Virus record (IMG/VR): IMGVR_UViG_3300011441_000019
Location: 1 to 42,394 of that record
From: a virus
Taxonomy: Duplodnaviria; Caudoviricetes
Length of the DNA stretch: 42,394 nucleotides
Reading direction: 5' to 3' (one strand)
The number at the start of each line of letters is the position of its first letter. The first letter of the stretch is position 1. Shown here one piece after another: positions 12,896-30,966 of the stretch. The position numbers were made by a program, and so were the translations under genes. The notes beneath the pieces are model-generated. The model searched no databases. It was given only the letters and a program-made list of their open reading frames with translations, and was not told where the DNA came from.

Positions 12896-12907
12896 AAAGG
12901 CAAACTT

Positions 12908-14555: not shown

Positions 14556-14583
14556 GCGGAACTTGACTGAGCGCGTCCGACTC

Positions 14584-14802: not shown

Positions 14803-14820
14803 CTCCCTTCAAGGCCGCGA

Positions 14821-15300
14821 ATGAATTTGCAAGAAGCTGTCGAGGCCATCCCCGGGCGGGTCACTGAATCCATCAAATCTCTGTTCGCCTCGGGCGACGA
14901 ACGGGTGGCCACGGCCACCAAGGCATCGACCGATGCCAACGCCGCCCGCGCCAGCGCGGAAAAGGAGCGGGACGATTTCAAGGCCAGGGCCGCGCAGGCC
15001 GAGGCGGACCTGGCCACGGCGCGGCAGAGCATCGCCACGCAGGGCGCGGAGTTGAAGGCCGCCCAGGAGAAGCTCACCAAACTCGAGGCCAGCCAGAAGA
15101 CCGTCGAGCAGCTCGCCGCCGAGAAGAGCCAGCAGCAGTGCGCGGCCCAGGGCGTGCCGCCCGGCACGCTGGAGAAGGCGAAGTCCGGCGCGGACGCCGG
15201 CAGCTCGAAGGGGCAGCAGATCACCCGCGCGCAGTTCGAGGCGCTTTCGCACAAGGACAAGGCCGCGTTCTGCAAAGGCGGCGGCGAGATCAAGGACTGA
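14821..15300 (+). CDS. Capsid scaffolding protein
   Basis: Long coiled coil and C-terminal ITRAQFEALSHKDKAAFCKGGG helix-loop-helix; between protease and capsid genes. Confidence 0.75.
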   Translation: MNLQEAVEAIPGRVTESIKSLFASGDERVATATKASTDANAARASAEKERDDFKARAAQAEADLATARQSIATQGAELKAAQEKLTKLEASQKTVEQLAAEKSQQQCAAQGVPPGTLEKAKSGADAGSSKGQQITRAQFEALSHKDKAAFCKGGGEIKD

Positions 15301-15303
15301 CGG

Positions 15304-15336
15304 GATTTCCGATTTCCGATTTCCGATTTCCGATTT
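15304..15336. repeat. Heptamer tandem array (GATTTCC)x4
   Basis: Read directly in scaffold-capsid intergenic region. Confidence 0.9.
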
Positions 15337-15368
15337 TTCAAAACCCACCACACCGCGCTGACGTTCCT

Positions 15369-16661
15369 ATGAAGTTCCCCCTGTTCCGCCTCGCCGCCAT
15401 CACCGCGCTGTTCGCGCTGTGCGCGCAAATCTTTATGGCCACCGGCATGTACGCCGCCTGGCTGGTGTTGTTCGTCGGCTCGGCGGTGCTGGCTAACCCG
15501 CGGTTTTCCCCGGGCCTGTGCGCCAACACGCTGACGAGCCTCATCCCCGACATTTACGCCGCGTTGGACGTCGTCTCGCGCGAGCTGGTGGGCCTCATCC
15601 AGGCGTGTGCGCGCGATAGCCGCGCGGACCGCGTGGCCGCCAACCAGACGTTGCGCATCCCGATTTCGCCGGCCAATGCGGCGGGCGGCAATATCACGCC
15701 GGCCATGACGCTGCCGGCCGCAGCCGACCAGACGATCCTCAACAACACGCTGACGATCTCGAAGCAACGGTTTTTTCCGTTCTCCTGGACGGGTGAGGAG
15801 CAGAAGTCCGTGGATTACGGCCCGGGCTTCCTCACGCTCAAGCAGTATCAGATCGCGCAGGCCATCCGCGCGGCGGTGAACGAGGTGGAGGTGGACGTGG
15901 CCACGGCGGCTTACCAGGGCGCCAGCCGCGCCTTCGGCACCGCGGGCACCACTCCGTTCGCCACGAGCATCGTCGACCTGGCGCAGATCAAAAAGATTCT
16001 GGACGACAATGGCACGCCCATGTCGGACCGCTCGCTGGTGATGAACACCACGGCGGGGGTGAATTTCCGCAGCCTGGCCAACCTCTACAAGGTGAACGAG
16101 GCGGCGGATGCCTCGCTGCTGCGCAAGGGCACACTGGGCAGCATTTACGATTTCGGCGTGCGCGAGAGCGCGCAGATCCCGACGGTGACCAAGGGCACGG
16201 GCGCGGGTTACCTGGTGAACAACGGGGCGGGCTACCCGATCGGCGCGACCGCCATCACGGTGGACACCGGCGCCGGCACGATTCTCAAGGGCGACGTGAT
16301 CACGTTCGCCGGCGATACGAACAAGTACGTGGTGGGCGCGGCGCTGTCCGGCGCCGTCGTCACGCTGGCTCTGCCCGGTTTGCGCCAGGCGGTGGCGGAC
16401 AATGCGGCCATCACGGTGGGCAACAATTTCGCGGGCAACGTGGCGTTCAGCCGCAACGCGGTGTTGCTGGCCACCCGGCTGCCGGCGATCCCGGAGGAAG
16501 GCGACCAGGCGAGCGACCGCATGGTGGTGACGGACCCGAATTCCGGGTTGTCCTTTGAGTTCGCGGTCTACCCTGGCTTCCGGATGAATGTTTACCACGT
16601 CTCGCTGGCGTGGGGCGTGAGCGCGATCAAGCCGGAACATATCGCCATTCTGCTGGGCTAA
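15369..16661 (+). CDS. Major capsid protein, P22 coat-like, with 51-aa hydrophobic leader
   Basis: ANTLTSLIPDIYAALDVVSRELVG..., beta insertion domain (GTILKGDVITFAG), C-terminal LAWGVSAIKPEHIAILLG. Confidence 0.9.
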   Translation: MKFPLFRLAAITALFALCAQIFMATGMYAAWLVLFVGSAVLANPRFSPGLCANTLTSLIPDIYAALDVVSRELVGLIQACARDSRADRVAANQTLRIPISPANAAGGNITPAMTLPAAADQTILNNTLTISKQRFFPFSWTGEEQKSVDYGPGFLTLKQYQIAQAIRAAVNEVEVDVATAAYQGASRAFGTAGTTPFATSIVDLAQIKKILDDNGTPMSDRSLVMNTTAGVNFRSLANLYKVNEAADASLLRKGTLGSIYDFGVRESAQIPTVTKGTGAGYLVNNGAGYPIGATAITVDTGAGTILKGDVITFAGDTNKYVVGAALSGAVVTLALPGLRQAVADNAAITVGNNFAGNVAFSRNAVLLATRLPAIPEEGDQASDRMVVTDPNSGLSFEFAVYPGFRMNVYHVSLAWGVSAIKPEHIAILLG

Positions 16662-16694
16662 GCGTAAAGAAAGACTCTCACCTAAAAACCTCTC

Positions 16695-16739
16695 GAAGGG
16701 CCGGCCGGCATAAGTGACTGGCTGGCCCTTTCCTCTTTT
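16695..16739 (+). terminator. Rho-independent terminator after capsid gene
   Basis: GAAGGGCCGGCCGGCA-taag-TGACTGGCTGGCCCTTT followed by a T-rich tract. Confidence 0.65.
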
Positions 16740-17129
16740 GTGCTTCGTGATCAAATCCAGCGGGACTTGCAGCGCATCGAGCGCGAGCTGCGCGGTCCGG
16801 ATGATGCCGCGCAATGGATCGTGTACGGCTCGCTCACGCTGCCGTGCTCGCCGACGTCCCTCGAGGACACCATCGCGCTGGATGCCGAGGGCAACGAGAC
16901 CCAGATCACGCAGGCGGTCCTGGTGCGCATGGAGCTTTTCAACCTGCCCGGGATGCAGCCGGTGGAGGGCGAGGATGCGGATGATTTGTTCGCCAGCGTC
17001 GAGGGGCTGCCCAACGTGGGCGATGAGGTGCGGTTCCGGTGGAGTTCCTATCGCGTGGTGAAGCGGCGGTTCGACGCCATGCTGGCCAGCGTGCGGCTTG
17101 ACCTGGCGGACGTGGGCAGCAACGAATGA
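16740..17129 (+). CDS. Putative head-tail connector/head closure protein
   Basis: 129 aa; LPNVGDEVRF...YRVV beta-barrel pattern; follows capsid gene. Confidence 0.55.
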   Translation: MLRDQIQRDLQRIERELRGPDDAAQWIVYGSLTLPCSPTSLEDTIALDAEGNETQITQAVLVRMELFNLPGMQPVEGEDADDLFASVEGLPNVGDEVRFRWSSYRVVKRRFDAMLASVRLDLADVGSNE

Positions 17130-18712
17130 AAACGATTTTCTCACCTGCCCGCATTGCCGGCCTGCTGGCCTGCCTGCTCACCTTCCCGGCCGCCGCGCAA
17201 TACATCCACACCCTCGAGTACACGGACCCCGGGCGGCGCATCATCGACAAGGTGAATTCCAACACGGTGGCCTCGGTGTCGGCCGGGAGCACGTTGTTCG
17301 TGGATGCGGCGTTGGGGAGTGATTCGACCGGGCGGCGCGGCCGGCCGGACCGCCCGTTTGCCACGCCGTGGGTGGCACGCACGAATGCCCAGGATGGGGA
17401 TCTGATCGTGGTGCGCCCGGGGCTCTACCAAACCGGCACGACCAACTTGTTCAAGGCCGGCCGGCTGACGTGGGATTTTCAAGGGGCCACGTTGCGGTTC
17501 GTGGACATCCCTACCAACAGCAGCGGTTGCGGCATGTTCGACGATCGGTTTACCGGCGCAGTGGCCTGCAGCAACGACGTCATTGGGTCGCTCACTCTCC
17601 AGTATAATTCCGGCACCAACGTCTTTCTCAACACCAACGACTGCACCCTCGGCTACAACACCAATGCCCTGGGCGCCATTGTGCTGAGTAACATTCCGGC
17701 GCCGTCGCTGATCCGTTGGGTGGCCGAGACCAAAATTGAAACGGTCGGCGCCGCGCCCGTGCCGTTTTCGCTCTACCTCCACAATTGCCAGACGGGAACC
17801 GTCTTCCGGACCCTCTCGGACAGCCAGCTCCTCTGGCCTTCCAACCAGGTCGTGATCACGACCAACTGTCCCGCGTCACCGGGCGATCCCTGGACGGTGG
17901 ACATCGGGAAAAACTTCATCTGGTGGGGGCCCAGCGCCACGGCGGAGGTTTACGTGGATTACACCATCCACAATCAGCTTTACGCGGTGGACGGCTACGG
18001 CGAGACCTCCAGTGATTCCGGAGAACTCCGTTACCGCGCCAACTTGAGCGACGGGAAAATCTACCTGGTGGGCCGGTCAAAAAGTTGGAAATTCTGGGGC
18101 GAGGCGCTGGAATGGAAAAACACCGCTCCCAACTCGCCCACGCTCTTTGAATTCCACAGCGCCGGCAGCCATTACCTGGGCGGCCAGAAGGCTTCGACGC
18201 GCGGCGGCACCATCTTCGACTTCACCAACCCGCAAAACAGCGGCGATACGAATTTGGTCACTTGGGTGGATTTTGATAAGGTGAGCGGTTCCAACGGCTG
18301 GGCGCGTGTGACCCACGGGCACCTGCGCGGCCGGGTCGGCCATTTCGAGCAAAACGGCCCGGCCAATGGCACTCCCGGAATCTTCGTCACGAACATCTCG
18401 GCACTGGTCTCCTTGAGCGGCGAGGACATGTACGCCGAGGGCACGTCGGTGAGCCACGGCGGAGGGCGCACCAAGCTGATCAACTACGAGATTTATTCCA
18501 CCAATCGCGATCCCGTGCTCGTCACCGGCAGCGGCCTGCGCCTCCACAACAACGTCCTGGTGCCCGGACTGCTCGCCACCAACTCCATTCGTGCGGCCAC
18601 CGCCCAGACCGTGGGCGTTTACGGGATGCTGCTCCAGAAATCCAACGCCCACGCCAATATCACTTTTTCGAGCGGCCTGACCAACGTGATCACCGACTTC
18701 GACACGGACTGA
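17126..18712 (+). CDS. Secreted beta-helix (pectate-lyase-like) protein, possible spike/depolymerase
   Basis: Sec signal MKTIFSPARIAGLLACLLTFPAAA|Q; FVDAALGSD...PFATP...DGDLIVVRPGLY beta-helix cap motif. Confidence 0.7.
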   Translation: MKTIFSPARIAGLLACLLTFPAAAQYIHTLEYTDPGRRIIDKVNSNTVASVSAGSTLFVDAALGSDSTGRRGRPDRPFATPWVARTNAQDGDLIVVRPGLYQTGTTNLFKAGRLTWDFQGATLRFVDIPTNSSGCGMFDDRFTGAVACSNDVIGSLTLQYNSGTNVFLNTNDCTLGYNTNALGAIVLSNIPAPSLIRWVAETKIETVGAAPVPFSLYLHNCQTGTVFRTLSDSQLLWPSNQVVITTNCPASPGDPWTVDIGKNFIWWGPSATAEVYVDYTIHNQLYAVDGYGETSSDSGELRYRANLSDGKIYLVGRSKSWKFWGEALEWKNTAPNSPTLFEFHSAGSHYLGGQKASTRGGTIFDFTNPQNSGDTNLVTWVDFDKVSGSNGWARVTHGHLRGRVGHFEQNGPANGTPGIFVTNISALVSLSGEDMYAEGTSVSHGGGRTKLINYEIYSTNRDPVLVTGSGLRLHNNVLVPGLLATNSIRAATAQTVGVYGMLLQKSNAHANITFSSGLTNVITDFDTD

Positions 18713-18714
18713 TT

Positions 18715-19092
18715 ATGGGCGCTCCCACCTGCTGGCTTTCCGGCCTGCTGGCCTGCTTCCTGACGGGATGCGCTGGGCCAGGCAGGCCAGCAGGCCGGCA
18801 GGCCAGCAGGCCGGAGCGGGGGCTCGCGGTGCCGGTCCCGGGCGGCGGGCACCAGCTCATGACCGCGCGGGCGGTCGAACCCATGTTCAAGGCCGCGGCG
18901 ATCATCGGCACCCGATCGTTCACCTGGCGCTTTGATGTGCCGCAGGGGACGACGGTTTCCAACTTCTGGTGGGACTTGCAACGGAGCACCAACCTCCGCA
19001 CGTGGGTGACCATCCAAACGAACATCATCGCGCCGATCGATGTGCTCATCACGAACGAGATGGAGTTTTTTCGGCTGCGGGGACGGCTGTGA
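18715..19092 (+). CDS. Putative lipoprotein with C-terminal export-type domain
   Basis: Lipobox FLTG|C; C-terminus LQRSTNLRTW...TNEMEFFRL. Confidence 0.6.
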   Translation: MGAPTCWLSGLLACFLTGCAGPGRPAGRQASRPERGLAVPVPGGGHQLMTARAVEPMFKAAAIIGTRSFTWRFDVPQGTTVSNFWWDLQRSTNLRTWVTIQTNIIAPIDVLITNEMEFFRLRGRL

Positions 19093-19289
19093 TGAAAGGC
19101 GCGAGGCACGAGGCGCGAGGCGCGATGGAACCGGCGGAGTTCCGGGTGCGGGCGCTGTTGCGGTTTCCGTTCTCGCCGTGGATCCGCGAGGCGACCATCG
19201 CGGCGTTGCGCGCGGATCCGGTGACGGCGCCGTTCGTGCCGGCGGAGGTGGGGCCGGGGCAATCCCCCAATCTCTTCCCTGACTCCTGA
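19092..19289 (+). CDS. Small hypothetical protein
   Basis: TGATG overlap; begins with (GGCRCGA)x4 repeat. Confidence 0.4.
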   Translation: MKGARHEARGAMEPAEFRVRALLRFPFSPWIREATIAALRADPVTAPFVPAEVGPGQSPNLFPDS

Positions 19290-19298
19290 CCGCGGGGC

Positions 19299-19859
19299 GT
19301 GACGCGGGACCAACGCGCGCGAAGTATCTCGCCCGCCATTCCCCCGCGCACCAAAATGACCATGACGTTACAGGAGCAGAGTCCCAAAATACTTCGCGGC
19401 ATCGAGCTGACCCGGCAGATCAAGTTGCTGACCGAGGAGCTGGATGCGTTGAAGGCGGAGTTTCGCAGCGAGGCGGAGCAGGAAATCCGGCGCGCCGGCA
19501 CGGGCGAGCTGCCGGGCCAAAGCTGGACGTTCAACACGGAGCCGCGCGAGTTCAAGGCGCTGGTGTCCTTCCCGAAGATCGGGCTGCTGCGCGAGTTATT
19601 CTTCATCAATAAAATTCCGCACCGTTACGCGGAGGACCCCAAGACCGGGGACAAGGTGCCGACGCCCATCGATTGCGACGTGCGCGAGGTGTGCGGGGAG
19701 CATTTCACGAAGTTGTGGACGCCGTTTTACCGGCCGGCCAAGGCCTTCCCGGAGCTGGTGCAGGCGATGATCGAGCCGAAGGCCCGCGCGCAGCGGCTGC
19801 TGCGGATGCTCGAGGAGCCGCCGCGGGCGGGGAGCGTGAAATTCGATGTGGTGAAGTGA
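19299..19859 (+). CDS. Hypothetical protein
   Basis: 186 aa (alternative ATG 19356); coiled-coil N-terminus. Confidence 0.7.
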   Translation: MTRDQRARSISPAIPPRTKMTMTLQEQSPKILRGIELTRQIKLLTEELDALKAEFRSEAEQEIRRAGTGELPGQSWTFNTEPREFKALVSFPKIGLLRELFFINKIPHRYAEDPKTGDKVPTPIDCDVREVCGEHFTKLWTPFYRPAKAFPELVQAMIEPKARAQRLLRMLEEPPRAGSVKFDVVK

Positions 19860-19881
19860 GGGTGTGACGAGAATCGAGCCC

Positions 19882-19932
19882 CAATGGTGTGAGGGGTCCG
19901 CCCTCACCTGTATCCTCTCCCCCAGGAGAGGA
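19882..19932. repeat. CCCTCA...CTCCCCCAGGAG REP-like element (copy 1)
   Basis: CAATGGTGTGAG.GG.CCGCCCTCA...CTCCCCCAGGAGA shared with 22280-22340. Confidence 0.7.
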
Positions 19933-19958
19933 CGCTGGCGCTGTGGGTCCACCTTCTC

Positions 19959-20774
19959 ATGAAGCCGACGATTTCTTTGGACCAGGCGGGGCTCAACCGG
20001 GCGCTGGGGCGTTTCGTCGCGGAGACGGGCCGCTCGATGGCGGCGGCCGTGAAGGAGCAGGCCAAGGCGTTCGTGCGGGATCTCATCGGGGGCACGCCGC
20101 CTTTTGGTAAGCATCCATTCACCAGGTCCACCAACGCGAACACCACGGGGGAGAGTTACAACGAGCAGCGGCGCATCGGCGAACGGGCGGTGCGTCGCGA
20201 CGTGCGCCGGGTGTTCAAGGACGTGGCGGTGCTGGCGCGGTGGATGGCGCGCAAGTTCAAGGACCCCGAGCTGGGCGCGCGGGTGCTGCGTTACGCGAAG
20301 CTCTCGGACACGCAGGCCATCCAAACGATTCTCAATGCCATGAACCTGCGCGGGTCGGTGCAGGTGATGGCAACGCGCAAGGACCATGCCTCGCGGCGGA
20401 ATCGACGGGGCCGGGTGAGCCCGCGCGGGCTGCGGTTCTTCATTACCGACGGCAAAAGTGTGGACGATTACGAAAAGGAGCAGGTGAGCCACGTGGGCAA
20501 GGCCAAGGGGGGCTGGGCCTCGGCCGCGGCGGCGCTCGGGGTGCCCGTGCCGGCGTGGATCCGGCGTAACGCGGGGCCGGGCATCGCGGATGTGAGCCAG
20601 CTCGCGAATTTGAAGAAGCCGAGTGTGACGATCGGCAACCTGGTCGCGCACGCGCAGAGCATGCCGCGGGAGGTCATCGAGGCGGTGGTGGAGAACCGGA
20701 TCCGGGCGATGCGGATCCGCGCGGAGGCGATTGTGAAGGCGGAGTACGAGAAGGAGCGGAGGCGAGGCCGGTGA
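19959..20774 (+). CDS. Putative tail completion/neck protein (HK97 gp10/lambda Z-like)
   Basis: Very basic, 271 aa, located ahead of terminator and tube genes. Confidence 0.5.
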   Translation: MKPTISLDQAGLNRALGRFVAETGRSMAAAVKEQAKAFVRDLIGGTPPFGKHPFTRSTNANTTGESYNEQRRIGERAVRRDVRRVFKDVAVLARWMARKFKDPELGARVLRYAKLSDTQAIQTILNAMNLRGSVQVMATRKDHASRRNRRGRVSPRGLRFFITDGKSVDDYEKEQVSHVGKAKGGWASAAAALGVPVPAWIRRNAGPGIADVSQLANLKKPSVTIGNLVAHAQSMPREVIEAVVENRIRAMRIRAEAIVKAEYEKERRRGR

Positions 20775-20776
20775 TG

Positions 20777-20851
20777 GGTAGGGACGCCTTCCACGGCGTC
20801 CGTGATCTTTCCCCGATCTAAAATGGGACGCGGTGGAACGCGGTCCCTACC
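20777..20851. repeat. GTAG-type REP doublet
   Basis: GGTAGGGACGCCTTCCACGGCGTCC...GGACGCGGTGGAACGCGGTCCCTACC. Confidence 0.75.
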
Positions 20852-20881
20852 TGGGTGGCGACTGACTTCGGGCGCCAGCCT

Positions 20882-21367
20882 GTGGCGACGTTTTACAATG
20901 ATTTGATCGAGAAGGGAGAGGCGGCCATTAAGGCGGTGTTGGAGGGGGCGGATACGGGCATCGATGCGGCTCAGATTCTCACTTCGTTTTCCACGCAGCG
21001 GGAGACCAAGGGGCGCGCGAGCATCATCATCAATGGCCTGGGCGGCCAGGAGGATGGCCACAATTCGGGGAACGAACGGCTTTCGTGGGTGGTGTCGGTG
21101 GAGAGTAACGCGGACGATGTGAAGGACGAGGAGACGACGGAGGAGAATGGCGCGGCGCGGGCCAGGCACCGGGATTATTGCGCAAAGGTGTTCGATGCGC
21201 TGAAGGCCCCGGGGTTGCACACGGCGTTATCGGCCGCGGTGGAGGAGTTCACGGTGTTCGATAGCATCCAGCGCAGCCGCGGGCCGAGCCGGCTGGTGAA
21301 GCGGAAGTTTCAAAGTGAGTTCCGGCTGGAGTTCAGTTGCGCGCCCAGCGCGATTGCGGCGAGCTGA
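20882..21367 (+). CDS. Putative tail terminator protein
   Basis: Size, alpha/beta pattern and position before the tube gene; GTG 14 nt after CTGACT. Confidence 0.5.
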   Translation: MATFYNDLIEKGEAAIKAVLEGADTGIDAAQILTSFSTQRETKGRASIIINGLGGQEDGHNSGNERLSWVVSVESNADDVKDEETTEENGAARARHRDYCAKVFDALKAPGLHTALSAAVEEFTVFDSIQRSRGPSRLVKRKFQSEFRLEFSCAPSAIAAS

Positions 21368-21424
21368 CCGCAATGGGAAAGAGCGGACCGGTCCACCAAC
21401 CATTGACTTGTTGGGCGAGCGCGC

Positions 21425-21874
21425 ATGGCTGAGCAATACGGAACGGCGCATATTCACGGAATGTCCGGGGCGTCCATCGGCAGCATCGCCGCGGTGTCGC
21501 CCAACCTGCAGGGGGGCTCGCTGGCGGTCATCGGCGGGGATGACGAGATCAAAAACCAGGCCGGAGAGGTGACGGGCTTGATTGGCTCGAATCATGTGCT
21601 GGAGGCCACGTTTGAATTCATTCCGGAGGGGACCACGATCTCCAATGCGCGGGTGGCCGCGACGTTACCGAAGGTGAATGCGCCGGTGCTGATTACCGGG
21701 ATGCCGATCGTGGCGTGCGCCGGGTTCACGGATGCTTACAACACGAACGGCGGGAATACGCAGCCGTGGTTTTTCAAGAGCGGGCGGATCAATCACCTGG
21801 CGGATGGCAAGTGGACGGGGACATTTACGTTGCGCCGCTATTTGCTGGTGACGTCGGGCACGCCGCTCGCGTGA
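21425..21874 (+). CDS. Putative major tail tube protein
   Basis: 149 aa, beta-rich, DEIKNQAGEVTG hairpin loop; position. Confidence 0.6.
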   Translation: MAEQYGTAHIHGMSGASIGSIAAVSPNLQGGSLAVIGGDDEIKNQAGEVTGLIGSNHVLEATFEFIPEGTTISNARVAATLPKVNAPVLITGMPIVACAGFTDAYNTNGGNTQPWFFKSGRINHLADGKWTGTFTLRRYLLVTSGTPLA

Positions 21875-21886
21875 TTTTTAATTTTT

Positions 21887-22249
21887 ATGGCGAATGAAAT
21901 CTCGGCGGCGGTGAGCCTGGGCGTCTCGAAGAACGGGGCGACGATCTCCAATAGCTACAACGGCAACGGCGATCTGTCGGGCACCGAAATGCTTTCGAGC
22001 GTGCAGCAGTTCTCGACCGCCAACAGCCAGGCCGTGTCGATCGGCGGGTGCGACCAGGTGAATGCGCTGATGATTAAGAATCTCGATTCCAGCATTGCCA
22101 TCACGGTGAGCCTGGACACGACGCACACGCAGGTCATTTCGGTGATCCCGGCCGGCCGGGCGGTGTTGCTGTGGGGCATTGCCACGACGTTTTATTGCAA
22201 GAGCGCCTCGGGCACGGTGGATGTGATGGTGACGGTGTGTGAGACGTGA
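21887..22249 (+). CDS. Putative structural protein (beta sandwich)
   Basis: 120 aa; LMIKNLD...IPAG pattern. Confidence 0.6.
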   Translation: MANEISAAVSLGVSKNGATISNSYNGNGDLSGTEMLSSVQQFSTANSQAVSIGGCDQVNALMIKNLDSSIAITVSLDTTHTQVISVIPAGRAVLLWGIATTFYCKSASGTVDVMVTVCET

Positions 22250-22279
22250 GCCGCCGCAAATTGGGAAAGCGCCTGGCCG

Positions 22280-22340
22280 CAATGGTGTGAGCGGACCGCC
22301 CTCATCCGGCCTGCGGCCACCTTCTCCCCCAGGAGAAGGG
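22280..22340. repeat. CCCTCA...CTCCCCCAGGAG REP-like element (copy 2)
   Basis: Homologous to 19882-19932; hairpin CCTTCTCC-ccca-GGAGAAGG. Confidence 0.7.
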
Positions 22341-22352
22341 GAACGAAAATGA

Positions 22353-23024
22353 ATGACGCCGTTTTTCCAGCGCGCCGCGGCTTACGGGCCCGGTTGTTGC
22401 GTCGCCGATCAACCGGTCATCCTCGGGTGGCGGCTCCGTCCGCTCTCCAACGGTCATTCCCTGTTGCTCCACGCTTGCGCCTCCCCTTTCTCGTGCCCGG
22501 ACTCCCCGCTTGAGTTGCGGGATTTCTTCACGTCGATCTTCATCTGCGCCCATCCCTGGCGGCAAAGCGAGCGGCTGCTGCGCTCGCGCTGGCTCCCGTT
22601 CTATTTTCGCGTGTGGCATTTCCTGCAACGGCGCACGGCGCTCAACCCGGAGCTGCGCAAGTTTCAAGCCTGGTGGACGGAGCAGAATGAGACGCCGGCG
22701 TTCAAGCTGCCGGAGCGCAGCGGCGATGCGCGGCCGAGCAGCGCGCCGCGCACGTTCATTCGCCTGGCGTTTTTGATGGGGGAGTTGCACCTGCCGGAGG
22801 CCGAGGCCCTCGATATGCCCGTGGTGCGGGCCAATGCGTTGTACGCAACGTGGCTGGATTGGACGGGCAAGGCGGAGTTGCTGACGCATTCGCCGCATTT
22901 GAATTCGGCGTTCTGGCGATTCGCGATGGAGAAGGACCGCGAGAAGTTCAATGAGGACGGCACGCGCAAGGGAGAGCAGGCCAGCAGGCCAGCGGGCCAG
23001 CAGGTGGGAGGAGGAACGGCCTGA
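22353..23024 (+). CDS. Putative tail assembly chaperone
   Basis: Directly upstream of tape measure gene; LRPLS...EALDMP pattern. Confidence 0.55.
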   Translation: MTPFFQRAAAYGPGCCVADQPVILGWRLRPLSNGHSLLLHACASPFSCPDSPLELRDFFTSIFICAHPWRQSERLLRSRWLPFYFRVWHFLQRRTALNPELRKFQAWWTEQNETPAFKLPERSGDARPSSAPRTFIRLAFLMGELHLPEAEALDMPVVRANALYATWLDWTGKAELLTHSPHLNSAFWRFAMEKDREKFNEDGTRKGEQASRPAGQQVGGGTA

Positions 23025-24187
23025 TGCTCGGCGGTCTCTTCAATCTGATTTTCCGCCTGGGGACGGATAACACCGACTTCAACCGGGGGCTGGGCGAGGC
23101 GACGGCGCGGGCGAATACGGCGGCCAGAGGGATGACGGCCGGGTTTACGAGAGCCTTTGCCAGCTTGTTCGCGGCGGGCGCGCTGACGAAACAGATCATC
23201 GACCTGGGCGGCGAGGTGAAGGATTTGAGTGACCGGCTGGGGGTGAGTGTGGAGGAGGTGCAGGAGTTCAGTCTGGCGGCGCGGTTGGGCGGGCAGGACG
23301 CGGGCACGTTCGCCCGGGCCATCGAACGCATCCGGCTAGCCATGGTGGAGGGGGCGTCCGGCAAGAATCCATTGGCACAGTTCGGGATCACGCTCCAGGA
23401 GCTGCAAAGCGGGGACGCGGTGGGCATCTTGCGAAAACTTTCCGAGGCGCTCAAGGACACGGCGATGAGTGCGGACCAGTTCAAGTCTCTGGTGGATGTG
23501 ATGGGTGCGCGCGGGGCGGGCGGCGTGATTAACATGCTCAAGGAGCTGCAAAATGCCAAGGGCAGCTTTCTCACGAAGGAGGAGGTCGATCTGCTGGACC
23601 GCGGCGGCGATGCGCTCACGAAGTTCTGGACGAACCTCAAGTTGATGGGGGCCAAGTTCATTTTTCTGGATGAGAAGGCAAAGGTCCAATTGGGCCTAAG
23701 GAAGCAGGCGCCGGCAGCGGGTGCGCTGCCGGCCGTGGAGGGCATCGAGGCGCAGATGGCGCTGGAGAAGAAGACCACGGAGGACCTGGCCAAGCTCCGC
23801 CAGGAGACCGATGAGCTGAATGAAAAGAATCGCAGGGCGCAGCTCACGGACGAGGAGCGGCTCAATGAGTTGCTGATGGAGCGCACGGAGTTGATCCGGC
23901 GGCTCCAGTTCGCGCTGGATGAGAAAGGGGCGGCCGAAATCCAGTTTCAACTGGCGCAGAACGCCGCCGGGTTGCTCGTCGCGCAGAAGGCGCTGGCGCC
24001 GGGCGCGTTTTCGTTGCCGTCGTCCCGCGGGCTGCCGCGCAACACGGATGCGTTGTTGAGCGTGGGGAATTTCCTGGGGAGCGCGCCGGATTCGGAGTTG
24101 AGCCGGCGCATGGAGCAGCAAACGCGGGAGCTGAAGGCGATCCGGGCCGCCATCGAAAAGCAGGGCATCAAACTCATTTTTGACTGA
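23024..24187 (+). CDS. Tape measure protein (short)
   Basis: LGTDNTDFNRGL N-terminus, DLSDRLGVSVEEVQ, long Ala/Leu/Glu helices. Confidence 0.8.
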   Translation: MLGGLFNLIFRLGTDNTDFNRGLGEATARANTAARGMTAGFTRAFASLFAAGALTKQIIDLGGEVKDLSDRLGVSVEEVQEFSLAARLGGQDAGTFARAIERIRLAMVEGASGKNPLAQFGITLQELQSGDAVGILRKLSEALKDTAMSADQFKSLVDVMGARGAGGVINMLKELQNAKGSFLTKEEVDLLDRGGDALTKFWTNLKLMGAKFIFLDEKAKVQLGLRKQAPAAGALPAVEGIEAQMALEKKTTEDLAKLRQETDELNEKNRRAQLTDEERLNELLMERTELIRRLQFALDEKGAAEIQFQLAQNAAGLLVAQKALAPGAFSLPSSRGLPRNTDALLSVGNFLGSAPDSELSRRMEQQTRELKAIRAAIEKQGIKLIFD

Positions 24188-24205
24188 CTGGCAATGGAAC
24201 CGCAT

Positions 24206-24331
24206 ATGAGAATTGTCGATCTAATCCTGTTCTGGTTTCTCGCCCTCCCATCCTACTGGCCACTCGCGATCGTGCTCATGCTTATACTCTCCGCCTTCGC
24301 CCTGGGCTGCCTCGCCGGCCGGCGCCTTTGA
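24206..24331 (+). CDS. 41-aa membrane peptide (not in ORF track)
   Basis: MRIVDLILFWFLALPSYWPLAIVLMLILSAFALGCLAGRRL*; CTGACT-N16-ATG; fills TMP-next gene gap. Confidence 0.55.
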   Translation: MRIVDLILFWFLALPSYWPLAIVLMLILSAFALGCLAGRRL

Positions 24332-24332
24332 T

Positions 24333-25115
24333 ATGTCTGAGAATTATGGAGCGCGCGGTGCGAAGCGGATCTCCCGGTCGGGCTGGGATGCGCAGCAGGG
24401 GGATTTCATCGAGACGGTTTACGAGGGCACGCGCGAGTACGTCAATTCGTTGTTCGCGCCGGCGCGGCTTTCGTATGGGGTGCTTGCGGTGGAGACGGAG
24501 AATGAGGGGCCGCTTTACCGGTTGCGGGTGCGCTCGAGCGTAACGCCGACGTCCGAGACGGACCAAAACAGCCCGGAGAACACGGTGCGCATCCAGGTGA
24601 ACCGGGTGCAGAAGAGCATTTTCGAGCCGCCTGGGCCGGCGGGCATCACGGCGGGGCAGTTGCGGGTGATTAAGAAGGCGCTGGCGGAGGATTTGGAGAA
24701 TGCCACGCCGGCGTCGTTCCTGGCGGCCAACATCCTGCCGGGGTCGGACGCTTACACGCTTTACCAGCTCGCGCTGTCGGGCGTGGATTACCGGGTGGTC
24801 TATCAGCCGGTGTTGTATCGCACGCGGACGGCTCCAGCCGGGTTCAAGTGGGCGGATCGGTCGAACGGGGTGGGCTACAACCTGAGCCTGGAGGATATGA
24901 TGGCGGATGCGGTGTTGGGGAACATTTTGAATTTCCCGCTGCCGACGAATGACGCGTTGGTGAATTGGGTGGATGAGAGCGGCACCGCGGTGCAGTTCGC
25001 CTATGGCTGGGTGAAACACGCGCCCTATTACGACACGGCGGCGGGCAATCGCACGGTGGAGTATCTCGAGTACGAATACGGGCTGTGGCCGGTGTTGATG
25101 TATCCGCTGTTCTAA
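24333..25115 (+). CDS. Putative tail tip/distal tail protein
   Basis: 260 aa following the tape measure gene. Confidence 0.6.
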   Translation: MSENYGARGAKRISRSGWDAQQGDFIETVYEGTREYVNSLFAPARLSYGVLAVETENEGPLYRLRVRSSVTPTSETDQNSPENTVRIQVNRVQKSIFEPPGPAGITAGQLRVIKKALAEDLENATPASFLAANILPGSDAYTLYQLALSGVDYRVVYQPVLYRTRTAPAGFKWADRSNGVGYNLSLEDMMADAVLGNILNFPLPTNDALVNWVDESGTAVQFAYGWVKHAPYYDTAAGNRTVEYLEYEYGLWPVLMYPLF

Positions 25116-25116
25116 A

Positions 25117-25707
25117 ATGTTGCCGTTGCCAAAACCATTGACGGGCCAGAGCGGGCTGGAACGCTGGCTGATGCAGTTGCGGGAGTGCGTGAAGCAGGCC
25201 ACGCCGCGGGACAGCGAGTCGGTGAAGGTGACGCACACGAACCAGGGCGCGCACCTGCGGCTGACGTTGCCGCCGCCCGCGAGCTCGCCGGGCACGCCGG
25301 GTTTATTGAAACAGTTCCGGGTGAAGTCGGTGCAGAACGATCACCTGGTGTGCCGGGAGTTCGATGGCACGACGGAGGGCGCGAGTGATGTGTTGGTGGC
25401 GAAGCCGTTCAATTTGCGGCGCACCGGCTGGCATCAGGCGTCAGTTGTCTACACGCTGGAACCGTACCCGGGAAGTCCGGGGACGTTGACGGTGGTTTAT
25501 CAGTATCTGTCGCCAGTCTATCGCACGGCAACCTTTTCGGCGCAGGGCGGCGGTACGGTGGTTGAGCATCAAACAATCCGGCCAATCTATGTTCCGAATC
25601 GATCAGTCATTTTCGCCGGGCAGTCAGAGAATGGAACGGGTGTCTCGGGTGTCTCGATGGATTGGATAGACGCCAATTTTGACGCGCGGGCATGGGCTGA
25701 AGTATGA
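25117..25707 (+). CDS. Putative tail tip protein
   Basis: 196 aa in tail operon. Confidence 0.6.
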   Translation: MLPLPKPLTGQSGLERWLMQLRECVKQATPRDSESVKVTHTNQGAHLRLTLPPPASSPGTPGLLKQFRVKSVQNDHLVCREFDGTTEGASDVLVAKPFNLRRTGWHQASVVYTLEPYPGSPGTLTVVYQYLSPVYRTATFSAQGGGTVVEHQTIRPIYVPNRSVIFAGQSENGTGVSGVSMDWIDANFDARAWAEV

Positions 25708-26504
25708 GCTTCACGGAATTCTCTCAAAGTGATGGCAATGAATTCGTAGGCAGCGAGGGGCTTGAACGGGGCAATCGGCAAGGTGGCATTTACATGACCA
25801 CGATTGTCTGCTCTGGTTTTACTCCCAACGATGATATGAATGTGGCGGTGGAAATCCTCAACAGTATGAGGTCTTTTCTCCGGTGGCTGCCTTTACCACT
25901 CAAGCAGGGGCAATTGCTCTACACTTACGATCAGCAGACGAACACCGTGCAACGCTATCGGGAGCCAAGAGTTGCGCCAAACGGTTTCTTTCCAGGGCAA
26001 GTCAGTCTTGTCCCGCCGGCAGTTTTCGGACTGACGTTTCAAGTGGGTTGCGCACCGAATGAGTGTGTTTACGCTGGCAGAATAAGCGCCGGGCCGGTCT
26101 TCAGCGCACTGGTCTTATGTCGCAAGAAAATCAAATGGAGGATGACTCAGAAACAGCCGAATTTGATGCCACTGCGCCCACAACTCCGGCCTGTCTGTGT
26201 GTTCGATGCCTACAACATTCGCGATTTTAATTTGGCGAATTTTACGTCCAGATCGGCTGGCCCATTTTGCTACGAACCTGGCGAGGGAGGAGTGATTAAC
26301 GAGCCGCCCAATGCAGTCACTGGCCGAATGCTGCCCAGGTCGGAGATCGATTTTATGCCTCCACCAGCCGTGGTCTATGCCGATCCAGGTCTGTTCGTTG
26401 ACCGCACCGAGTTCGTGTTAAGGCGTATCATGGCCACCAAACCGGTGTTCCCTGGGGAGTTCGATGCTACTGCACAGGGCGTGGCCCCGTGCTGCGATCT
26501 GTAA
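25704..26504 (+). CDS. Putative tail protein, visibly lower GC
   Basis: 266 aa, ATGA overlap, many A/T-ending codons. Confidence 0.65.
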   Translation: MSFTEFSQSDGNEFVGSEGLERGNRQGGIYMTTIVCSGFTPNDDMNVAVEILNSMRSFLRWLPLPLKQGQLLYTYDQQTNTVQRYREPRVAPNGFFPGQVSLVPPAVFGLTFQVGCAPNECVYAGRISAGPVFSALVLCRKKIKWRMTQKQPNLMPLRPQLRPVCVFDAYNIRDFNLANFTSRSAGPFCYEPGEGGVINEPPNAVTGRMLPRSEIDFMPPPAVVYADPGLFVDRTEFVLRRIMATKPVFPGEFDATAQGVAPCCDL

Positions 26505-26537
26505 ACCCGGGGGCCTTGACTGGGACATCGGTCGGGC

Positions 26538-27137
26538 ATGGCGCTGCTGACGTTGTTTTATGAGGCCACGTCCAAGTCGCTGGCCGCGGCGCGCAATCTC
26601 CCGCTCGGGTACCAGCTCCCGGCGTTGCGGCAGGAGGATATCGTGTCGCTCGAGCTTTCGATCCTCAAAAGCATCAGCGAATTTTCCCAGACCCCGAATG
26701 AGCTGGTGAATCTCACCGGTTATTCGGCGCGCGTGTCCCTCGGGACGGCGGCCAGCGTGCTGGCTTCGCAGAACACGTTCACCATCGATGCAACGGCGAC
26801 GAAGCTGACCGGCCTGCTGAACTTGAACACGGCCGGCGTCAATGCGCTGACGGATCGGCAGTCGGGGATTTATTTGGAGCTGCTGTTCACGGAGCCCGGC
26901 GGAGGCATCTCGGGGCAGCGGTTCCCGGTGTTCATCGAGAAGGCGGTGTTTATGTCGGGCACGGTGGTGGCGCCGCCGAGCGATGTGGCGCTGGGCCGGC
27001 TGGAGGCGCAGCGCACTTACGTGGCCAAGGAGGGCGCGGCCGGAGAGGCGCAGATTTTTACGAGCGCCGATGGCCTGAAGAAGATCATCAAGTACGCGCA
27101 TAACGACGGTTCGATGCGGGAGGAGCCGATTTCATGA
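26538..27137 (+). CDS. Putative fibre adaptor (BppU-like N-domain)
   Basis: Ig-like pattern (VNLTGYSARVSLG...GLLNLNT...YLELLF) before the fibre gene. Confidence 0.5.
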   Translation: MALLTLFYEATSKSLAAARNLPLGYQLPALRQEDIVSLELSILKSISEFSQTPNELVNLTGYSARVSLGTAASVLASQNTFTIDATATKLTGLLNLNTAGVNALTDRQSGIYLELLFTEPGGGISGQRFPVFIEKAVFMSGTVVAPPSDVALGRLEAQRTYVAKEGAAGEAQIFTSADGLKKIIKYAHNDGSMREEPIS

Positions 27138-27433
27138 ACCCCACGCCGGAACAATGCCAGGCGCTCATTGAGGCGCTGGCTCCATTTGAATCGCCGTATG
27201 TGCTGACGCCGGACGAAGAGGTCTGTCTGAATATCCTCCGCGAGGCGGCCCAGAAGATCGCCGCGGGCGAGGACCTGGTGCCGCCGGTCGAGGGGCAGAC
27301 GCACAAGTTGCGGCTGTGGCGGCGGGTGAGTGTGGCGTTCATCCATCCCGAGGCGCCTCGGGCGCGCCAGGTCACGGCGCCGGATGGCCGGAGCCCGGCA
27401 GCCCAGGGATTGACCTTGGAGCCCCGCAAATGA
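27134..27433 (+). CDS. Hypothetical protein
   Basis: 99 aa with ATGA overlaps at both ends. Confidence 0.55.
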   Translation: MNPTPEQCQALIEALAPFESPYVLTPDEEVCLNILREAAQKIAAGEDLVPPVEGQTHKLRLWRRVSVAFIHPEAPRARQVTAPDGRSPAAQGLTLEPRK

Positions 27434-29754
27434 AGACGTTTTTCCTGTTGTTCCTGGCTGCGTCGCTGCCGGCAGCCGGCGCGGAATTGATCACGGCGAC
27501 CATCACGATCACCAACACGCCGTCCGGGCTGACCTCGAATCTCACGGTGAACGGGACGGCCACGCGCTATTGGACGAATGACATCACCAGCTCGCCGGGC
27601 ACGCTCATCCAGCAGACGAACAACCCTTCCAACTCGGCCACGCAGCTCATCAATCATCTGACGGCTTACCCGGCGGTGTCGGGGCATTATCTTTACCAGA
27701 CGACGCCGACCAACGTGTTGATCCGCGGGCGGGTCGGAGAGGTGATGGCGGTGACCATCGCGGGCGGGTGGGCGTTCGTGACGTACAGCACGCAGCAGGT
27801 GTCCACGCCCACGTTCGTGGTGCGGATGCCGTTGACGGTGGAGGCGAACACGAACCAGACGAATATCGCGAGCAGCCTGGTGCGCGGGATGTCGGATTCG
27901 AGCACGAACAGCTTCTCGACGAATGCCGTCGCCACTACCCATTTCCTGACGAAGGGAGCGAGCGCGTTGCAGACGGTGACTGCGCCGGTCTCTCTTCAGC
28001 AGCTCACGAATTCGACGAACAAGGGCACGATCACGGGCGGCACTTATACCAACGCGGCCCTGGACAATCCGACCTCGACGAATCTTGTCAATCGAGGCAA
28101 CGCCATCCGGAGCGAGGGGAGCGGCGGGAACAGCCTGCAAGTCGGCAGCAACGCCGTTGCACTCGGGTCCAGAAGCGTCGCCATGGGCAACTCCTCGATT
28201 GCCACGAACGCGGACACCATTGCCATTGGCACCTCGGCCCGCGCCACCAACGACAACAGCACCGCCGTGGGAAATTCCTCCCAAGCCGTCGGCAACAACT
28301 CATCGGCCTACGGTTACAATTCTGTTGCCACCGGAGCAGACACCGCCGCGTTGGGCAATGGCGCCAGCGCCCTGGGCGCCAGCGTCACGGCCGTGGGCAG
28401 CGGCGCCTCCGGCAACAGCTATCAGGCAACCGCGCTCGGCAACACTGCCGAAGCCAACGCCATCGGAGCCATCGCACTTGGTGCCGGCGCCATCGCTGGC
28501 CACAGCAACTCTGTGGCGCTCGGAACCTCTTCCGCCACCACCACCACCAACCAAGTCCGCCTCGGCAGCTCCACCACGCTCTCCGTTCCATTCGCCGCGG
28601 AACTCGCGAACGCCCGCAACCTCAACGCCGTCGGCACCAATCTTTTTCACGGCGTCGTCGCCTACGACACGGAGCTGACCGTCTCGTCCGTCGCGGCCGG
28701 CCACAACGTCATCGACTCCTCGACGAACACTGTCCTTTACCTCACCGGTTCTCCTGGCGCGGCGTGGACCTTGGGCGGCTTCACCGGGGCCAAGAACGAC
28801 GGACGCATCCTCAAGGTGTTCAATCAAACCGGATTCGACGTGACGATCTTCAACGAGAGCGGCACGGCCCCGACCGCTTCAGATCGCATCCTGACCTACG
28901 CCGGCGCTGGCGGTGTGACGAACGTCCTCGTCACCGGCAATGGCTACATGGAGTTCAGCTACTCCACCGCCGTCAATCGCTGGCTGCTTGTCGCGCCCTC
29001 CGTGGACGTCACCGCCGTGGCCACCAACTCCGTCGCCAACGTGGACGGCTCCGCGACGAACCTCAACACCTACGCCAGCGCGGGCAATAAAGTGCCCCTC
29101 ACCGTCAACGGCTTCATCGGCGCTGGCACGAACCATTTCCAGGTCCTCAACTCCAACGGCGTCCCGGTCCTGAGCGTGCGCAGCAACGGAACCACCGTCC
29201 ACAGCAACATCACGATCACTCCATTCGGCCCCGAGATCGGCGTGCCTCATCGGCTCGTCACCTTCACCAACGAAGTGACAGTGACCAACACCACCAGCGA
29301 GACCTCTCTCATTTCCGGCGTCGGCTGGGGCACTTACACCATCCCGGCCAACTACCTCTCGCCAGCCATGACGGTGCAGTTCAAATTCTGGGGCAAGCTC
29401 AACACCGATGGTGCCGTGCCCAACCACGTCCTCTCCCTCAAACTCGGAAGCACCGTCATCGCCACAAACCTCGGCACATTCACCGTCAACCTAAGCAACG
29501 ATTCCTGGCAGTTCGATGGTGCGTTTACCTGCCGGCTCACCGGCGCCAGCGGTTCTGTCAAAGCGCAGGGTCAATTCGCCACCAGCGCCGCCCTCGGCGG
29601 GCTCTCCACCAGCCGCACCTTGAAAATGGGCATCACGTATGACGCCGTGACCATCGACACGACCGCGGCGCAGACCATCGACTTCACGCTCGCCCCAGGC
29701 GACGCCCAGACCGGCATAACCACGACCGGCGGATTCATCATGGTCATACCCTGA
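27430..29754 (+). CDS. Tail fibre/adhesin with YadA-head-like repeats and Sec signal peptide
   Basis: MKTFFLLFLAASLPAAGA|E; about nine 14-aa S/T-x-A-[ILVM]-G repeats; no aromatic-ended autotransporter barrel at the C-terminus. Confidence 0.8.
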   Translation: MKTFFLLFLAASLPAAGAELITATITITNTPSGLTSNLTVNGTATRYWTNDITSSPGTLIQQTNNPSNSATQLINHLTAYPAVSGHYLYQTTPTNVLIRGRVGEVMAVTIAGGWAFVTYSTQQVSTPTFVVRMPLTVEANTNQTNIASSLVRGMSDSSTNSFSTNAVATTHFLTKGASALQTVTAPVSLQQLTNSTNKGTITGGTYTNAALDNPTSTNLVNRGNAIRSEGSGGNSLQVGSNAVALGSRSVAMGNSSIATNADTIAIGTSARATNDNSTAVGNSSQAVGNNSSAYGYNSVATGADTAALGNGASALGASVTAVGSGASGNSYQATALGNTAEANAIGAIALGAGAIAGHSNSVALGTSSATTTTNQVRLGSSTTLSVPFAAELANARNLNAVGTNLFHGVVAYDTELTVSSVAAGHNVIDSSTNTVLYLTGSPGAAWTLGGFTGAKNDGRILKVFNQTGFDVTIFNESGTAPTASDRILTYAGAGGVTNVLVTGNGYMEFSYSTAVNRWLLVAPSVDVTAVATNSVANVDGSATNLNTYASAGNKVPLTVNGFIGAGTNHFQVLNSNGVPVLSVRSNGTTVHSNITITPFGPEIGVPHRLVTFTNEVTVTNTTSETSLISGVGWGTYTIPANYLSPAMTVQFKFWGKLNTDGAVPNHVLSLKLGSTVIATNLGTFTVNLSNDSWQFDGAFTCRLTGASGSVKAQGQFATSAALGGLSTSRTLKMGITYDAVTIDTTAAQTIDFTLAPGDAQTGITTTGGFIMVIP

Positions 29755-30104
29755 CGGTCGTGTGGGCCGCCCTACTGATCTACCCAGTGGAGTTCCGCGT
29801 GACGGAACTTGCCGGCGGAATGGTGGCCCATGACGGGCTCGATATCGGGAAATTCAGTCCCAACTGTCCGCGATCGATGAATGCGCGCATTTCGCGGCGG
29901 GCGGCCAGGATGTCCGCGAGAGGCGTTCTCCAAGGCAGGGCAACCGTCGCGATGCCATCTTTTCCGGGAGCAGTTATTGCGTTGTGAACGTCGGGTAGTG
30001 GCTCAGTTTGAAATTCCGGCTGGCAAACTTGTGACCGCAATATCTTGCAATGTAACTGGAAGGTGGAAGTCTCCTCGCACGTTCCGATACCCTCGGGGCC
30101 ATGA

Positions 30105-30156
30105 GCGGGCCGCGTGATAGTCTGCTAAGATTATCAATCACGCGGCCCGTTTTATT
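30105..30156 (+). terminator. Long hairpin with T tract inside MITE
   Basis: GCGGGCCGCGTGAT...ATCACGCGGCCCGT-TTATTT, 14-bp stem. Confidence 0.65.
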
Positions 30157-30257
30157 TGATCGCGCTGGCGTTACGGCCCGCGGGAAAAGTGGCTATTATC
30201 GGCGCGCCCTTTCATAAACCTATTACAATCATAGAATCTGGATGGGATGATTTGTAA

Positions 30258-30286
30258 TTGACTTGCTAACAGGCAATACCGATGAT
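30258..30286 (+). promoter_or_regulatory. sigma70-like promoter inside MITE
   Basis: TTGACT-N17-GATGAT. Confidence 0.55.
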
Positions 30287-30292
30287 GTTCAC

Positions 30293-30362
30293 ACAAGACC
30301 GTTACGCCCGTAGGCGGGCAACTATCTGCCCCGCCGTGGCCTTGTGCCACGCGGGGCTTTTT
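30293..30362 (+). ncRNA. Putative short structured leader RNA ending in terminator
   Basis: Hairpin GCCCG-tagg-CGGGC, then GCCCCGCCGTGGC-cttgt-GCCACGCGGGGC-TTTTT. Confidence 0.45.
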
Positions 30363-30367
30363 ACTGA

Positions 30368-30427
30368 ATGAAAAAGAAGGTTGCTCTCCTCATAGATGGC
30401 GAATGGTTCAGGCGGCGACCTTGTTAG
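30368..30427 (+). pseudogene. N-terminal fragment of NYN/PIN (LabA-DUF88-like) nuclease
   Basis: MKKKVALLIDGEWFRRRPC*; matches first-strand K-x-A-h-h-I-D-G motif, then stops. Confidence 0.55.
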
Positions 30428-30920
30428 GAGAATTATCCCCGTCGTTTGATTTCCCTGAATTTCAAACTGAGCCACTACCGAACGTCGCGCAGGGCTTGGC
30501 TTACTTCCCTCTCGCGTAACTTGCCCTCTTCTTCTTCTTTCTGATCTAGGGGCGCATCGAGTTCCGCGGCGCGTAACTTGGCCGCGTCCGGGCTATTGGT
30601 TATTTGGAAAAGATCGGGCTGGTCGACAGCAGGGTTCCCTTTTGTGGAACTCGGCGGACCATGCCGCACCTATTCACGGCGTTCGGACGCGGGAAATCGT
30701 CGGCCAGCCTGCCCCGTTGCGCGTATAGGCCCACCATCAAAAAGAAATCTATTCGAGCAGGGGCGGCGGCGTAGAGCTTCGCTTCTTCGAGGTTTTTTCG
30801 TGAGAGCGGCCCAAAACAAAAAAACGCGCAGTTCGCGACTGTTCGCGACTCTGGACGAGGTAAATCGACGGTCAGCCTGGTGCCGCTGCGTTCGTAGCCG
30901 TTTGATACTCAAGCAAGGGG

Positions 30921-30947
30921 TGGGGTGACCGACGGGACTCGAACCCG
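30921..30947 (-). other. attP core = 3' end of tRNA (His-like)
   Basis: Minus strand CGGGTTCGAGTCCCGTCGGTCACCCCA: T-loop, acceptor 3' strand, C73 discriminator + CCA; 20 bp from integrase stop; no 5' tRNA half. Confidence 0.85.
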
Positions 30948-30966
30948 GTAGCTGGGCCGCCTTTTC

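Follow-up and report, generated by a model that had tools for sequence, protein, structure and literature searches.

The DNA analysed here (the window) is the 42,394-nucleotide IMG/VR record IMGVR_UViG_3300011441_000019, assigned to the Caudoviricetes, and this work concerns two of its proteins, a fibre with a YadA-type head and a right-handed β-helix protein, both of which begin with Sec-type leaders and are enriched in the dipeptide Thr-Asn (TN). The gene content of the window, which includes a terminase, a lambda-type portal, an S49 protease, a major capsid protein, a short tape measure and a tyrosine integrase, identifies this uncultured virus as a temperate tailed phage, and the tail is probably short and also non-contractile because no sheath was detected. 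The sequencing runs matching the window DNA, all of them DNA runs, are from freshwater sediment, and one of them may be its source. The coordinates of the features are collected in Table 1.

Table 1. Coordinates and character of the features discussed (ORF, open reading frame)
Feature	Positions	Strand	Character
Major capsid protein	15369..16661	+	51-residue doubly hydrophobic leader (15369-15521); 1 TN; likely a separate feature
Exported right-handed β-helix protein, 528 residues	17126..18712	+	Tailspike/pertactin fold; 13 TN; three conserved Cys
β-helix protein, Sec-type signal peptide, residues 1-24	17126..17197	+	Helix 7-18 in model; cleavage putative
Small lipoprotein-like ORF	18715..19092	+	3 TN; lipobox-like Cys19; uncharged n-region; start uncertain
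Leaderless tail module	21425..26504	+	Tube-like, chaperone-like, short tape measure, three distal genes; context; no TN excess
Leaderless fibre anchor, 199 residues	26538..27137	+	Weakly BppU_N/LtfC-like; synteny with fibre
Anchor residues 147-199	26976..27134	+	Predicted fibre-binding part; includes C-terminal motif of ~35 residues
99-codon ORF	27134..27433	+	Overlaps anchor and fibre; no relative found
Exported fibre, 774 residues	27430..29754	+	24 TN; leader, virion-type N-terminal domain, YadA-type head, middle β domain, lectin-like C-terminal domain; no membrane anchor
Fibre Sec-type signal peptide, residues 1-17/18	27430..27483	+	Hydrophobic core, Pro, Ala at -3/-1; cleavage putative
Fibre residues 20-121	27487..27792	+	Predicted docking domain; fold like a domain of phage tail sheaths/nozzles
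Fibre YadA-type left-handed β-roll head, residues 228-385	28111..28584	+	PF05658, E 3.6e-10
Fibre lectin-like β-sandwich, residues 606-774	29245..29751	+	Weak: Z about 8 to lectins/carbohydrate-binding modules

As the original prediction had stated, both proteins start with MKT, followed by a hydrophobic core and an Ala-rich end; the leaders were called from the sequence and a heuristic test of the n-, h- and c-regions. The structural model of the fibre has an overall predicted local distance difference test score (pLDDT) of 72.8 and a predicted template modelling score of 0.41. Its residues 20–121 match 8kee (Z 11.6, root mean square deviation (rmsd) 1.8, 88 residues aligned), 9cb9 (Z 9.8) and 7y22 (Z 9.2), and the head superimposes closely on 1p9h (Z 22.5, rmsd 1.1, 139 aligned). 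The middle part is weakly tailspike-like in the model. The lectin-like C-terminal domain, likely the receptor-binding part judging from its predicted fold, is variable across the family, and many relatives stop near residue 520. The lack of an autotransporter barrel had also been claimed, and it is borne out by Pfam, which gives YadA_head only and no anchor family, as well as by the model, in which no barrel is present; neither a lipobox nor a C-terminal membrane segment was found on the fibre. The ATGA overlaps proposed to couple both genes to the virion operon are real, joining the β-helix gene to the ORF at 16740–17129 and the fibre gene to the 99-codon ORF, although the fibre gene is not coupled directly to the gene at 26538.

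The TN counts given in the original prediction proved exact. The β-helix protein holds 13 TN against a mean of 3.7 in shuffled sequences and the fibre 24 against 10.1, and none of 5000 shuffles of either protein reached the observed count. The reverse pair NT is not enriched (4 in the β-helix protein, 7 in the fibre) and the N-x-S/T sequon is at chance in both (5 versus 6.3 and 16 versus 16.3, respectively). The capsid and tube proteins, first put forward as the TN-poor comparison, are weak controls, with 1.8 and 0.9 TN expected; the 63 remaining called ORFs, which are automatic calls including some on the wrong strand, together contain 17 TN versus 18.6 expected. A third TN-rich ORF, at 18715–19092, had been overlooked and has 3 TN versus 0.4 (p = 0.003, uncorrected for the 45 proteins tested); its C-terminal part resembles the TN-rich tails of secreted proteins of the Limisphaerales. 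The Asn of TN lies in coil in 20 of 24 cases in the fibre and 12 of 13 in the β-helix protein. A cause at the DNA level was considered and is unlikely, because TN is encoded by 4–5 different codon pairs and other genes are without excess.

Leader and dipeptide are found together across the fibre family. A search with the fibre found 251 proteins; the figures below rest on the 120 matches listed, 58 of which cover the N-terminal ~520 residues and were assigned to the fibre family on that basis, with the other 62, mostly YadA-type adhesins, serving as controls. The observed/expected ratio (O/E) for TN is 2.27–3.84 across all 58 members, compared with a pooled value of 1.20 (0.26–2.09) for the controls. 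The strict leader heuristic was passed by 52 of the 58, the six misses having long, mis-started or truncated N-termini. Among 46 aligned fibres, charged n- and hydrophobic h-regions are present in 45 and a small-residue motif in 41, with Ala at -3 in 28 and at -1 in 34, and the conserved domain begins 1–3 residues later. This family-wide leader anatomy gives good support to the proposed passage through the host export pathway. TN is the most retained dipeptide in the fibre and β-helix alignments (rank 1 of 112 and 1 of 104), and with TN masked during alignment it still ranks 1 of 113 and 2 of 109 in the two families. Where the Asn is kept at a TN site, the Thr changes mostly to Ser. The excess is present in all six fibre regions, and four unrelated groups of C-terminal extensions have O/E values of 2.1–4.3. 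Single-protein locus searches with the fibre gave no confirmed relative in viral contigs, the fibre alignment gave none by pattern in genome contigs, the fibre and the anchor have no match among 50,697 GenBank phage records, and a structure search of the Atlas with the N-terminal part of the fibre returned nothing useful.

The β-helix protein is modelled as a right-handed parallel β-helix (pLDDT 81.6), with residues 19–52 variable and of low model confidence. Its structural matches include 7akv (Z 26.1) and 8opz (Z 23.3), so that pertactins (Z 26) and tailspikes (Z 23) are about equally near, the fold being common to tailspikes, pertactins and lyases; Foldseek against the PDB gave no significant match. 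In 15 proteins of this family the TN O/E is 2.5–4.75, and 13 passed the leader heuristic. One relative, with a leader and 15 TN versus 4.9, is encoded where the tail genes of a Limisphaerales prophage end (G171), and others form part of larger exported proteins whose genes follow the fibre gene (L106, L087), whereas leaderless distant relatives have little TN (5 versus 2.4, 2 versus 2.2 and 2 versus 1.3). Locus searches and the alignment with the β-helix protein yielded no confirmed relative in viral contigs, and no common domain was detectable between the fibre and β-helix families. The β-helix protein may be a second exported appendage, for which no anchor was identified, and we consider the chances of this evenly balanced.

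The fibre is accompanied by a small leaderless protein, here called the anchor. None of 142 members of the anchor family has a leader, and together they contain 92 TN versus 135 expected; the anchor profile matches 1404 clusters at 50% identity, short and fused forms together. Gene order was compared in 37 non-duplicate loci, after two duplicates had been dropped, and the profile called a fibre in 25. An anchor of the 26538 type is directly upstream of the fibre in 15 of the 16 loci with an upstream gene, usually overlapping it; nine of these 15 loci were in the profile training set and six were outside it. The remaining leader-bearing proteins of the loci compared contain 344 TN versus 126 expected, compared with 93 versus 109 in leaderless proteins. 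In 12 other loci, including that of a sister phage (L031), the anchor domain forms the N-terminus of a leaderless protein of 384–860+ residues, and these 12 fused proteins, several of them cut by locus ends, show no excess (35 TN versus 33.9). Short anchors from phages with a fibre of this family carry the C-terminal motif of ~35 residues, which every fused form lacks. In three prophages of other Verrucomicrobiota (L358, L361 and L373), the gene after the short anchor overlaps it and encodes a leader-bearing, TN-rich protein whose N-terminus is of another kind, an arrangement of genes that suggests more than one exported fibre family.

A trimer model of the fibre with the 26538 protein, proposed along with the original prediction, points to a possible physical pairing of the two. 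In the 3:3 model of the anchor with fibre residues 19–150, the predicted contact is between the mature N-terminal domain of the fibre and the C-terminal part of the anchor; the score is 0.78, and the best of three controls scored 0.00. In calibration, 116 of 157 solved complexes passed the score mark, as did 2 of 215 mismatched pairs, but this benchmark applies only roughly here, where own alignments and trimers were used. The model runs share at least 56% of their contacts, and the partner pLDDT is at least 76. The predicted interface involves anchor residues 147–199 and includes the mature N-terminus of the fibre, and none of the six TN sites in the modelled fibre part lies in the confident interface. 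A sequence search of the PDB found no solved complex of this kind, and we know of none that resembles the anchor-fibre pair.

The host-genome search covered 401 genomes of a single order, the Limisphaerales (the order of G001), and fibre matches were found in 29, of which four are near full-length, two cover the N-terminal part and the rest are mostly YadA heads. All six long matches adjoin phage-like genes or the edge of a short contig. In one integrated prophage (G316:C60) the terminase, portal, protease, tape measure, anchor and fibre are all present, the fibre having a leader and 18 TN versus 6.3, and two more leader-bearing, TN-rich genes follow. A ~9-kb element (G309:C1 2314540–2323578) carries an integrase, a fibre and a tape-measure-like gene with no detected anchor or large terminase, and is a candidate satellite or remnant.

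The dipeptide is also marked in the likely host group. Chromosome samples of 80–400 kb were divided by the heuristic into leader-bearing and cytoplasmic classes. In G309 (400 kb) the leader-bearing proteins have a TN O/E of 1.63 (confidence interval 1.30–1.97), rank 1 of 369 dipeptides, compared with 0.83 for the cytoplasmic class. The leader-bearing values are 2.05 in G328 and 2.03 in G053, and TN is the top dipeptide also in G005, a genome unassigned to order. Elsewhere they are at chance, at 0.90 in Luteolibacter, 0.85 in Opitutales and 1.02 in Chthoniobacteraceae. The N-x-S/T sequon is at chance in these chromosome samples too. Since TN is the top dipeptide in leader-bearing proteins of Limisphaerales and not in those of three other Verrucomicrobiota groups, it is, at the level of sequence, a signature of the host-lineage secretome that the phage proteins share. 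The leaders and the TN excess are real and lineage-wide.

The suggestion that TN marks glycosylation can be separated into two parts. That it is a mark is supported, as the motif is directional, conserved, exchanges mainly with SN and follows export in phage and host. Canonical N-glycosylation by STT3/PglB was rejected, with the sequon at chance and STT3 in 3 of 61 Limisphaerales genomes, two of them over the cut-off. With STT3 so rare and none of the tested transferase families tracking TN, glycosylation is a putative modification; taken on its own, modification of TN sites by sugars is somewhat favoured. The closest analogy is the general O-glycosylation of Bacteroidota, which, according to PMC12871550, uses the motif D-(S/T)-hydrophobic, likewise short, lineage-specific, enriched in non-cytoplasmic proteins and tolerant of S/T interchange, with a transferase that is unknown there as in Limisphaerales. 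The Limisphaerales motif differs in being (T/S)-N and in being known here from sequence alone.

The observations from sequence, namely the leaders, the excess and conservation of TN, the synteny, the fused leaderless counterparts without TN excess and the TN bias of the host, together with the predicted folds and predicted 3:3 complex, are probably best explained by a split tail fibre, in which an exported body docks on a leaderless cytoplasmic anchor and is loaded at lysis. The anchor would likely assemble on the tail in the cytoplasm, and the fibre body, which would be expressed late, would likely be sent through Sec into the periplasm. There its leader would be cleaved, the trimer would fold, and a host system would likely modify it at (T/S)-N sites. 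If a leaderless anchor binds an exported fibre as predicted, the two would come together only once their compartments mix; the simplest occasion is lysis, when failure of the inner membrane would give the fibre access to the C-terminal part of the anchor. One speculative advantage is that the receptor-binding parts would gain disulphides or a coat of sugars like those of the host. A wider proposal, to which we give slightly less than an even chance, is that a large group of tailed phages of Verrucomicrobiota build their virion in two compartments: head, tail and fibre anchor would form in the cytoplasm, while the fibres and spikes, and perhaps a decoration protein of the head, would be exported, receive glycans from a (T/S)-N system of the host that is so far undescribed, and join the particle at lysis, the split having evolved from one-piece cytoplasmic fibres.

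The same proteins could instead be lysogenic-conversion or host-surface adhesins encoded in the late region, which would be exported, modified and displayed or secreted without ever joining a virion; lambda Lom and the prophage-borne Eib adhesins are precedents for such proteins. The phage has an integrase, YadA and pertactin are bacterial adhesin folds, and TN is a general trait of the host secretome, all of which would suit a surface role, as would the leader-bearing β-helix pair on a chromosome stretch without phage genes (G131) and the fibre of the anchor-less G309 element. This role is nevertheless unlikely for the fibre, which lacks any barrel, lipobox or C-terminal membrane segment, is coupled in a fixed manner to the anchor gene, has fused leaderless counterparts in the same slot, is predicted to dock on a leaderless phage protein and, in its six long Limisphaerales matches, has the phage-like or contig-edge surroundings described above. 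On the choice between virion and host surface, which the original prediction had left undecided, the synteny, fused forms and predicted docking favour the virion for the fibre, and for the β-helix protein the two are about even. The leader might also act as a transient inner-membrane tether, in which case the fibre would never be fully translocated and would be added to the tail from the cytoplasmic side; a hydrophobic leader is present on the capsid protein as well, and T4 proheads assemble on the inner membrane, as described in PMC3185693. We regard a tether as highly improbable, since a single short n-h-c leader with Ala-x-Ala would put the mature chain outside, and the TN bias, which neither the capsid nor the leaderless fibres show, matches that of exported host proteins.

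An explanation of TN that is compatible with export and docking is that it is a structural turn motif of β-rich proteins rather than a modification site. TN is mostly in coil with a hydrophobic residue at N+2, and no modifying enzyme was found, yet ordinary YadA-type proteins pool at the 1.20 given above, the leaderless distant β-helix relatives have little TN, and the excess spans unrelated folds and every region of the fibre and, of the host lineages sampled, is seen in a single one, all of which makes a purely structural role rather unlikely.

Several results weigh against the split fibre and its modification. The anchor is taken as a tail part by its position and a weak fold likeness (Atlas template modelling scores of 0.46–0.49, under the naming bar), with no PHROG, Pfam or PDB match, and in this window the 99-codon ORF stands between anchor and fibre. 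Among seven short anchors found across genomes, a leader-bearing gene is next in three, and those three are without the C-terminal motif by profile. Conservation at the predicted interface does not exceed that of the remaining residues (0.36 versus 0.42 and 0.49 versus 0.57). Some relatives have long leaderless distal proteins (598–1129 residues) that could bind the receptor instead. The fibre without a detected anchor in G309 and the β-helix pair in G131 count on the same side, as does a leader-bearing relative of the fibre N-terminal domain without TN excess (G194, 3 versus 3.4). The cytoplasmic class is also high in TN in G328, G053 and G005 (1.82, 1.53 and 1.72), falling to ~1 after post hoc removal of 1–3 outliers each, mostly apparent mis-started secreted proteins. 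The families TIGR03663, Wzy_C_2 and PMT do not separate TN-positive from TN-negative genomes (five each).

The capsid leader, which the original prediction had tied to the exported fibres in an envelope-linked assembly route, does not seem to belong with them: the capsid protein has no TN excess, its leader has two hydrophobic segments, and a similar leader occurs in 1 of 80 related capsid loci. A sister phage has a leaderless capsid, and phages with exported fibres and leaderless capsids exist. The leader ends in a C-x-A-N junction, a candidate protease site, which is shared with head genes of two prophages (window 15369–15521; G316:C60 23847; G194:C36 5211, 6727 and 7322, three consecutive head genes), and it looks like a cytoplasmic-side tether that would be removed by a protease. 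A small leader-bearing, mostly TN-rich gene lies just after the capsid gene in four loci (L083 2651–3085, L084 772–1305, L088 4340–4843 and G316:C60 25303–25755), at the position of a decoration protein.

Compared with known systems, the fibre resembles trimeric autotransporter adhesins (YadA, EibD and BoaA; 1p9h, 2xqh and 3s6l) in its Sec-type leader and YadA β-roll head but differs in lacking a C-terminal barrel, in its virion-type N-terminal domain and in its coupling to a tail gene. It was therefore not classed as one of them; the true adhesins among the listed matches have the barrel anchor PF03895. The siphophage BppU upper baseplate and T5 LtfC proteins (PF10651, PF23926) are alike in their position at the end of the tail module, in the weak fold likeness of the anchor and in having a separate anchor and receptor-binding trimer, and the β-helix fold of the 17126 protein is that of a tailspike (8opz, above). 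The fibre differs from siphophage anchor-fibre pairs by its export leader and host-secretome motif; to our knowledge, known tail fibres are leaderless and assembled in the cytoplasm. By analogy, it would work most like a siphophage anchor-plus-fibre pair with the export step of a filamentous phage. PMC3185693 describes attachment of preassembled fibres as the last step in T4, and coat proteins of filamentous phages whose leaders are cleaved and which depend on the export machinery and leader peptidase of the host. Filamentous phages differ in being extruded without lysis and in having all coat proteins membrane-anchored, whereas here only appendages of a tailed phage with terminase and portal would be exported. 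No glycosyltransferase was detected among the window proteins scanned. Certain mycobacteriophages reportedly encode their own glycosyltransferases and involve no export. Glycosylated mycobacteriophage virions (Freeman 2023, cited in PMC12582341) are a precedent for glycosylated virion proteins in tailed phages.

Elsewhere in the window, a cluster of small leaderless genes at 11479–13719, in the region from portal to protease, is 44–71% shared with phage L004 and possibly encodes head appendages. Two small membrane proteins between terminase and portal (8926–9358) are holin-like by shape, and no endolysin was recognised in the scans run on the window proteins. An ABC-type ATPase fused to a GNAT domain (166–1323, phrog_11143) has as neighbours DUF932, a clamp-loader-like ATPase, DUF5131 and an adenine methyltransferase. 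A promoter and terminator scan of 13000–31200 was at chance level, and contigs from three DNA runs held no informative variants.

The domains of these proteins are of known kinds, and it is the proposed export-then-dock route that is new; the literature searched, largely outside subscription papers and in part only in extract, holds no description of exported tailed-phage fibres or of the TN motif. It is generally assumed that tailed phages complete their assembly in the cytoplasm, and genes with signal peptides are as a rule set aside as morons that contribute nothing to the virion. Neither assumption would hold for a large family, as reflected in the number of anchor clusters, if its receptor-binding parts are sent out of the cytoplasm and added at lysis, and a widespread soil and sediment lineage would possess an undescribed protein-modification motif.

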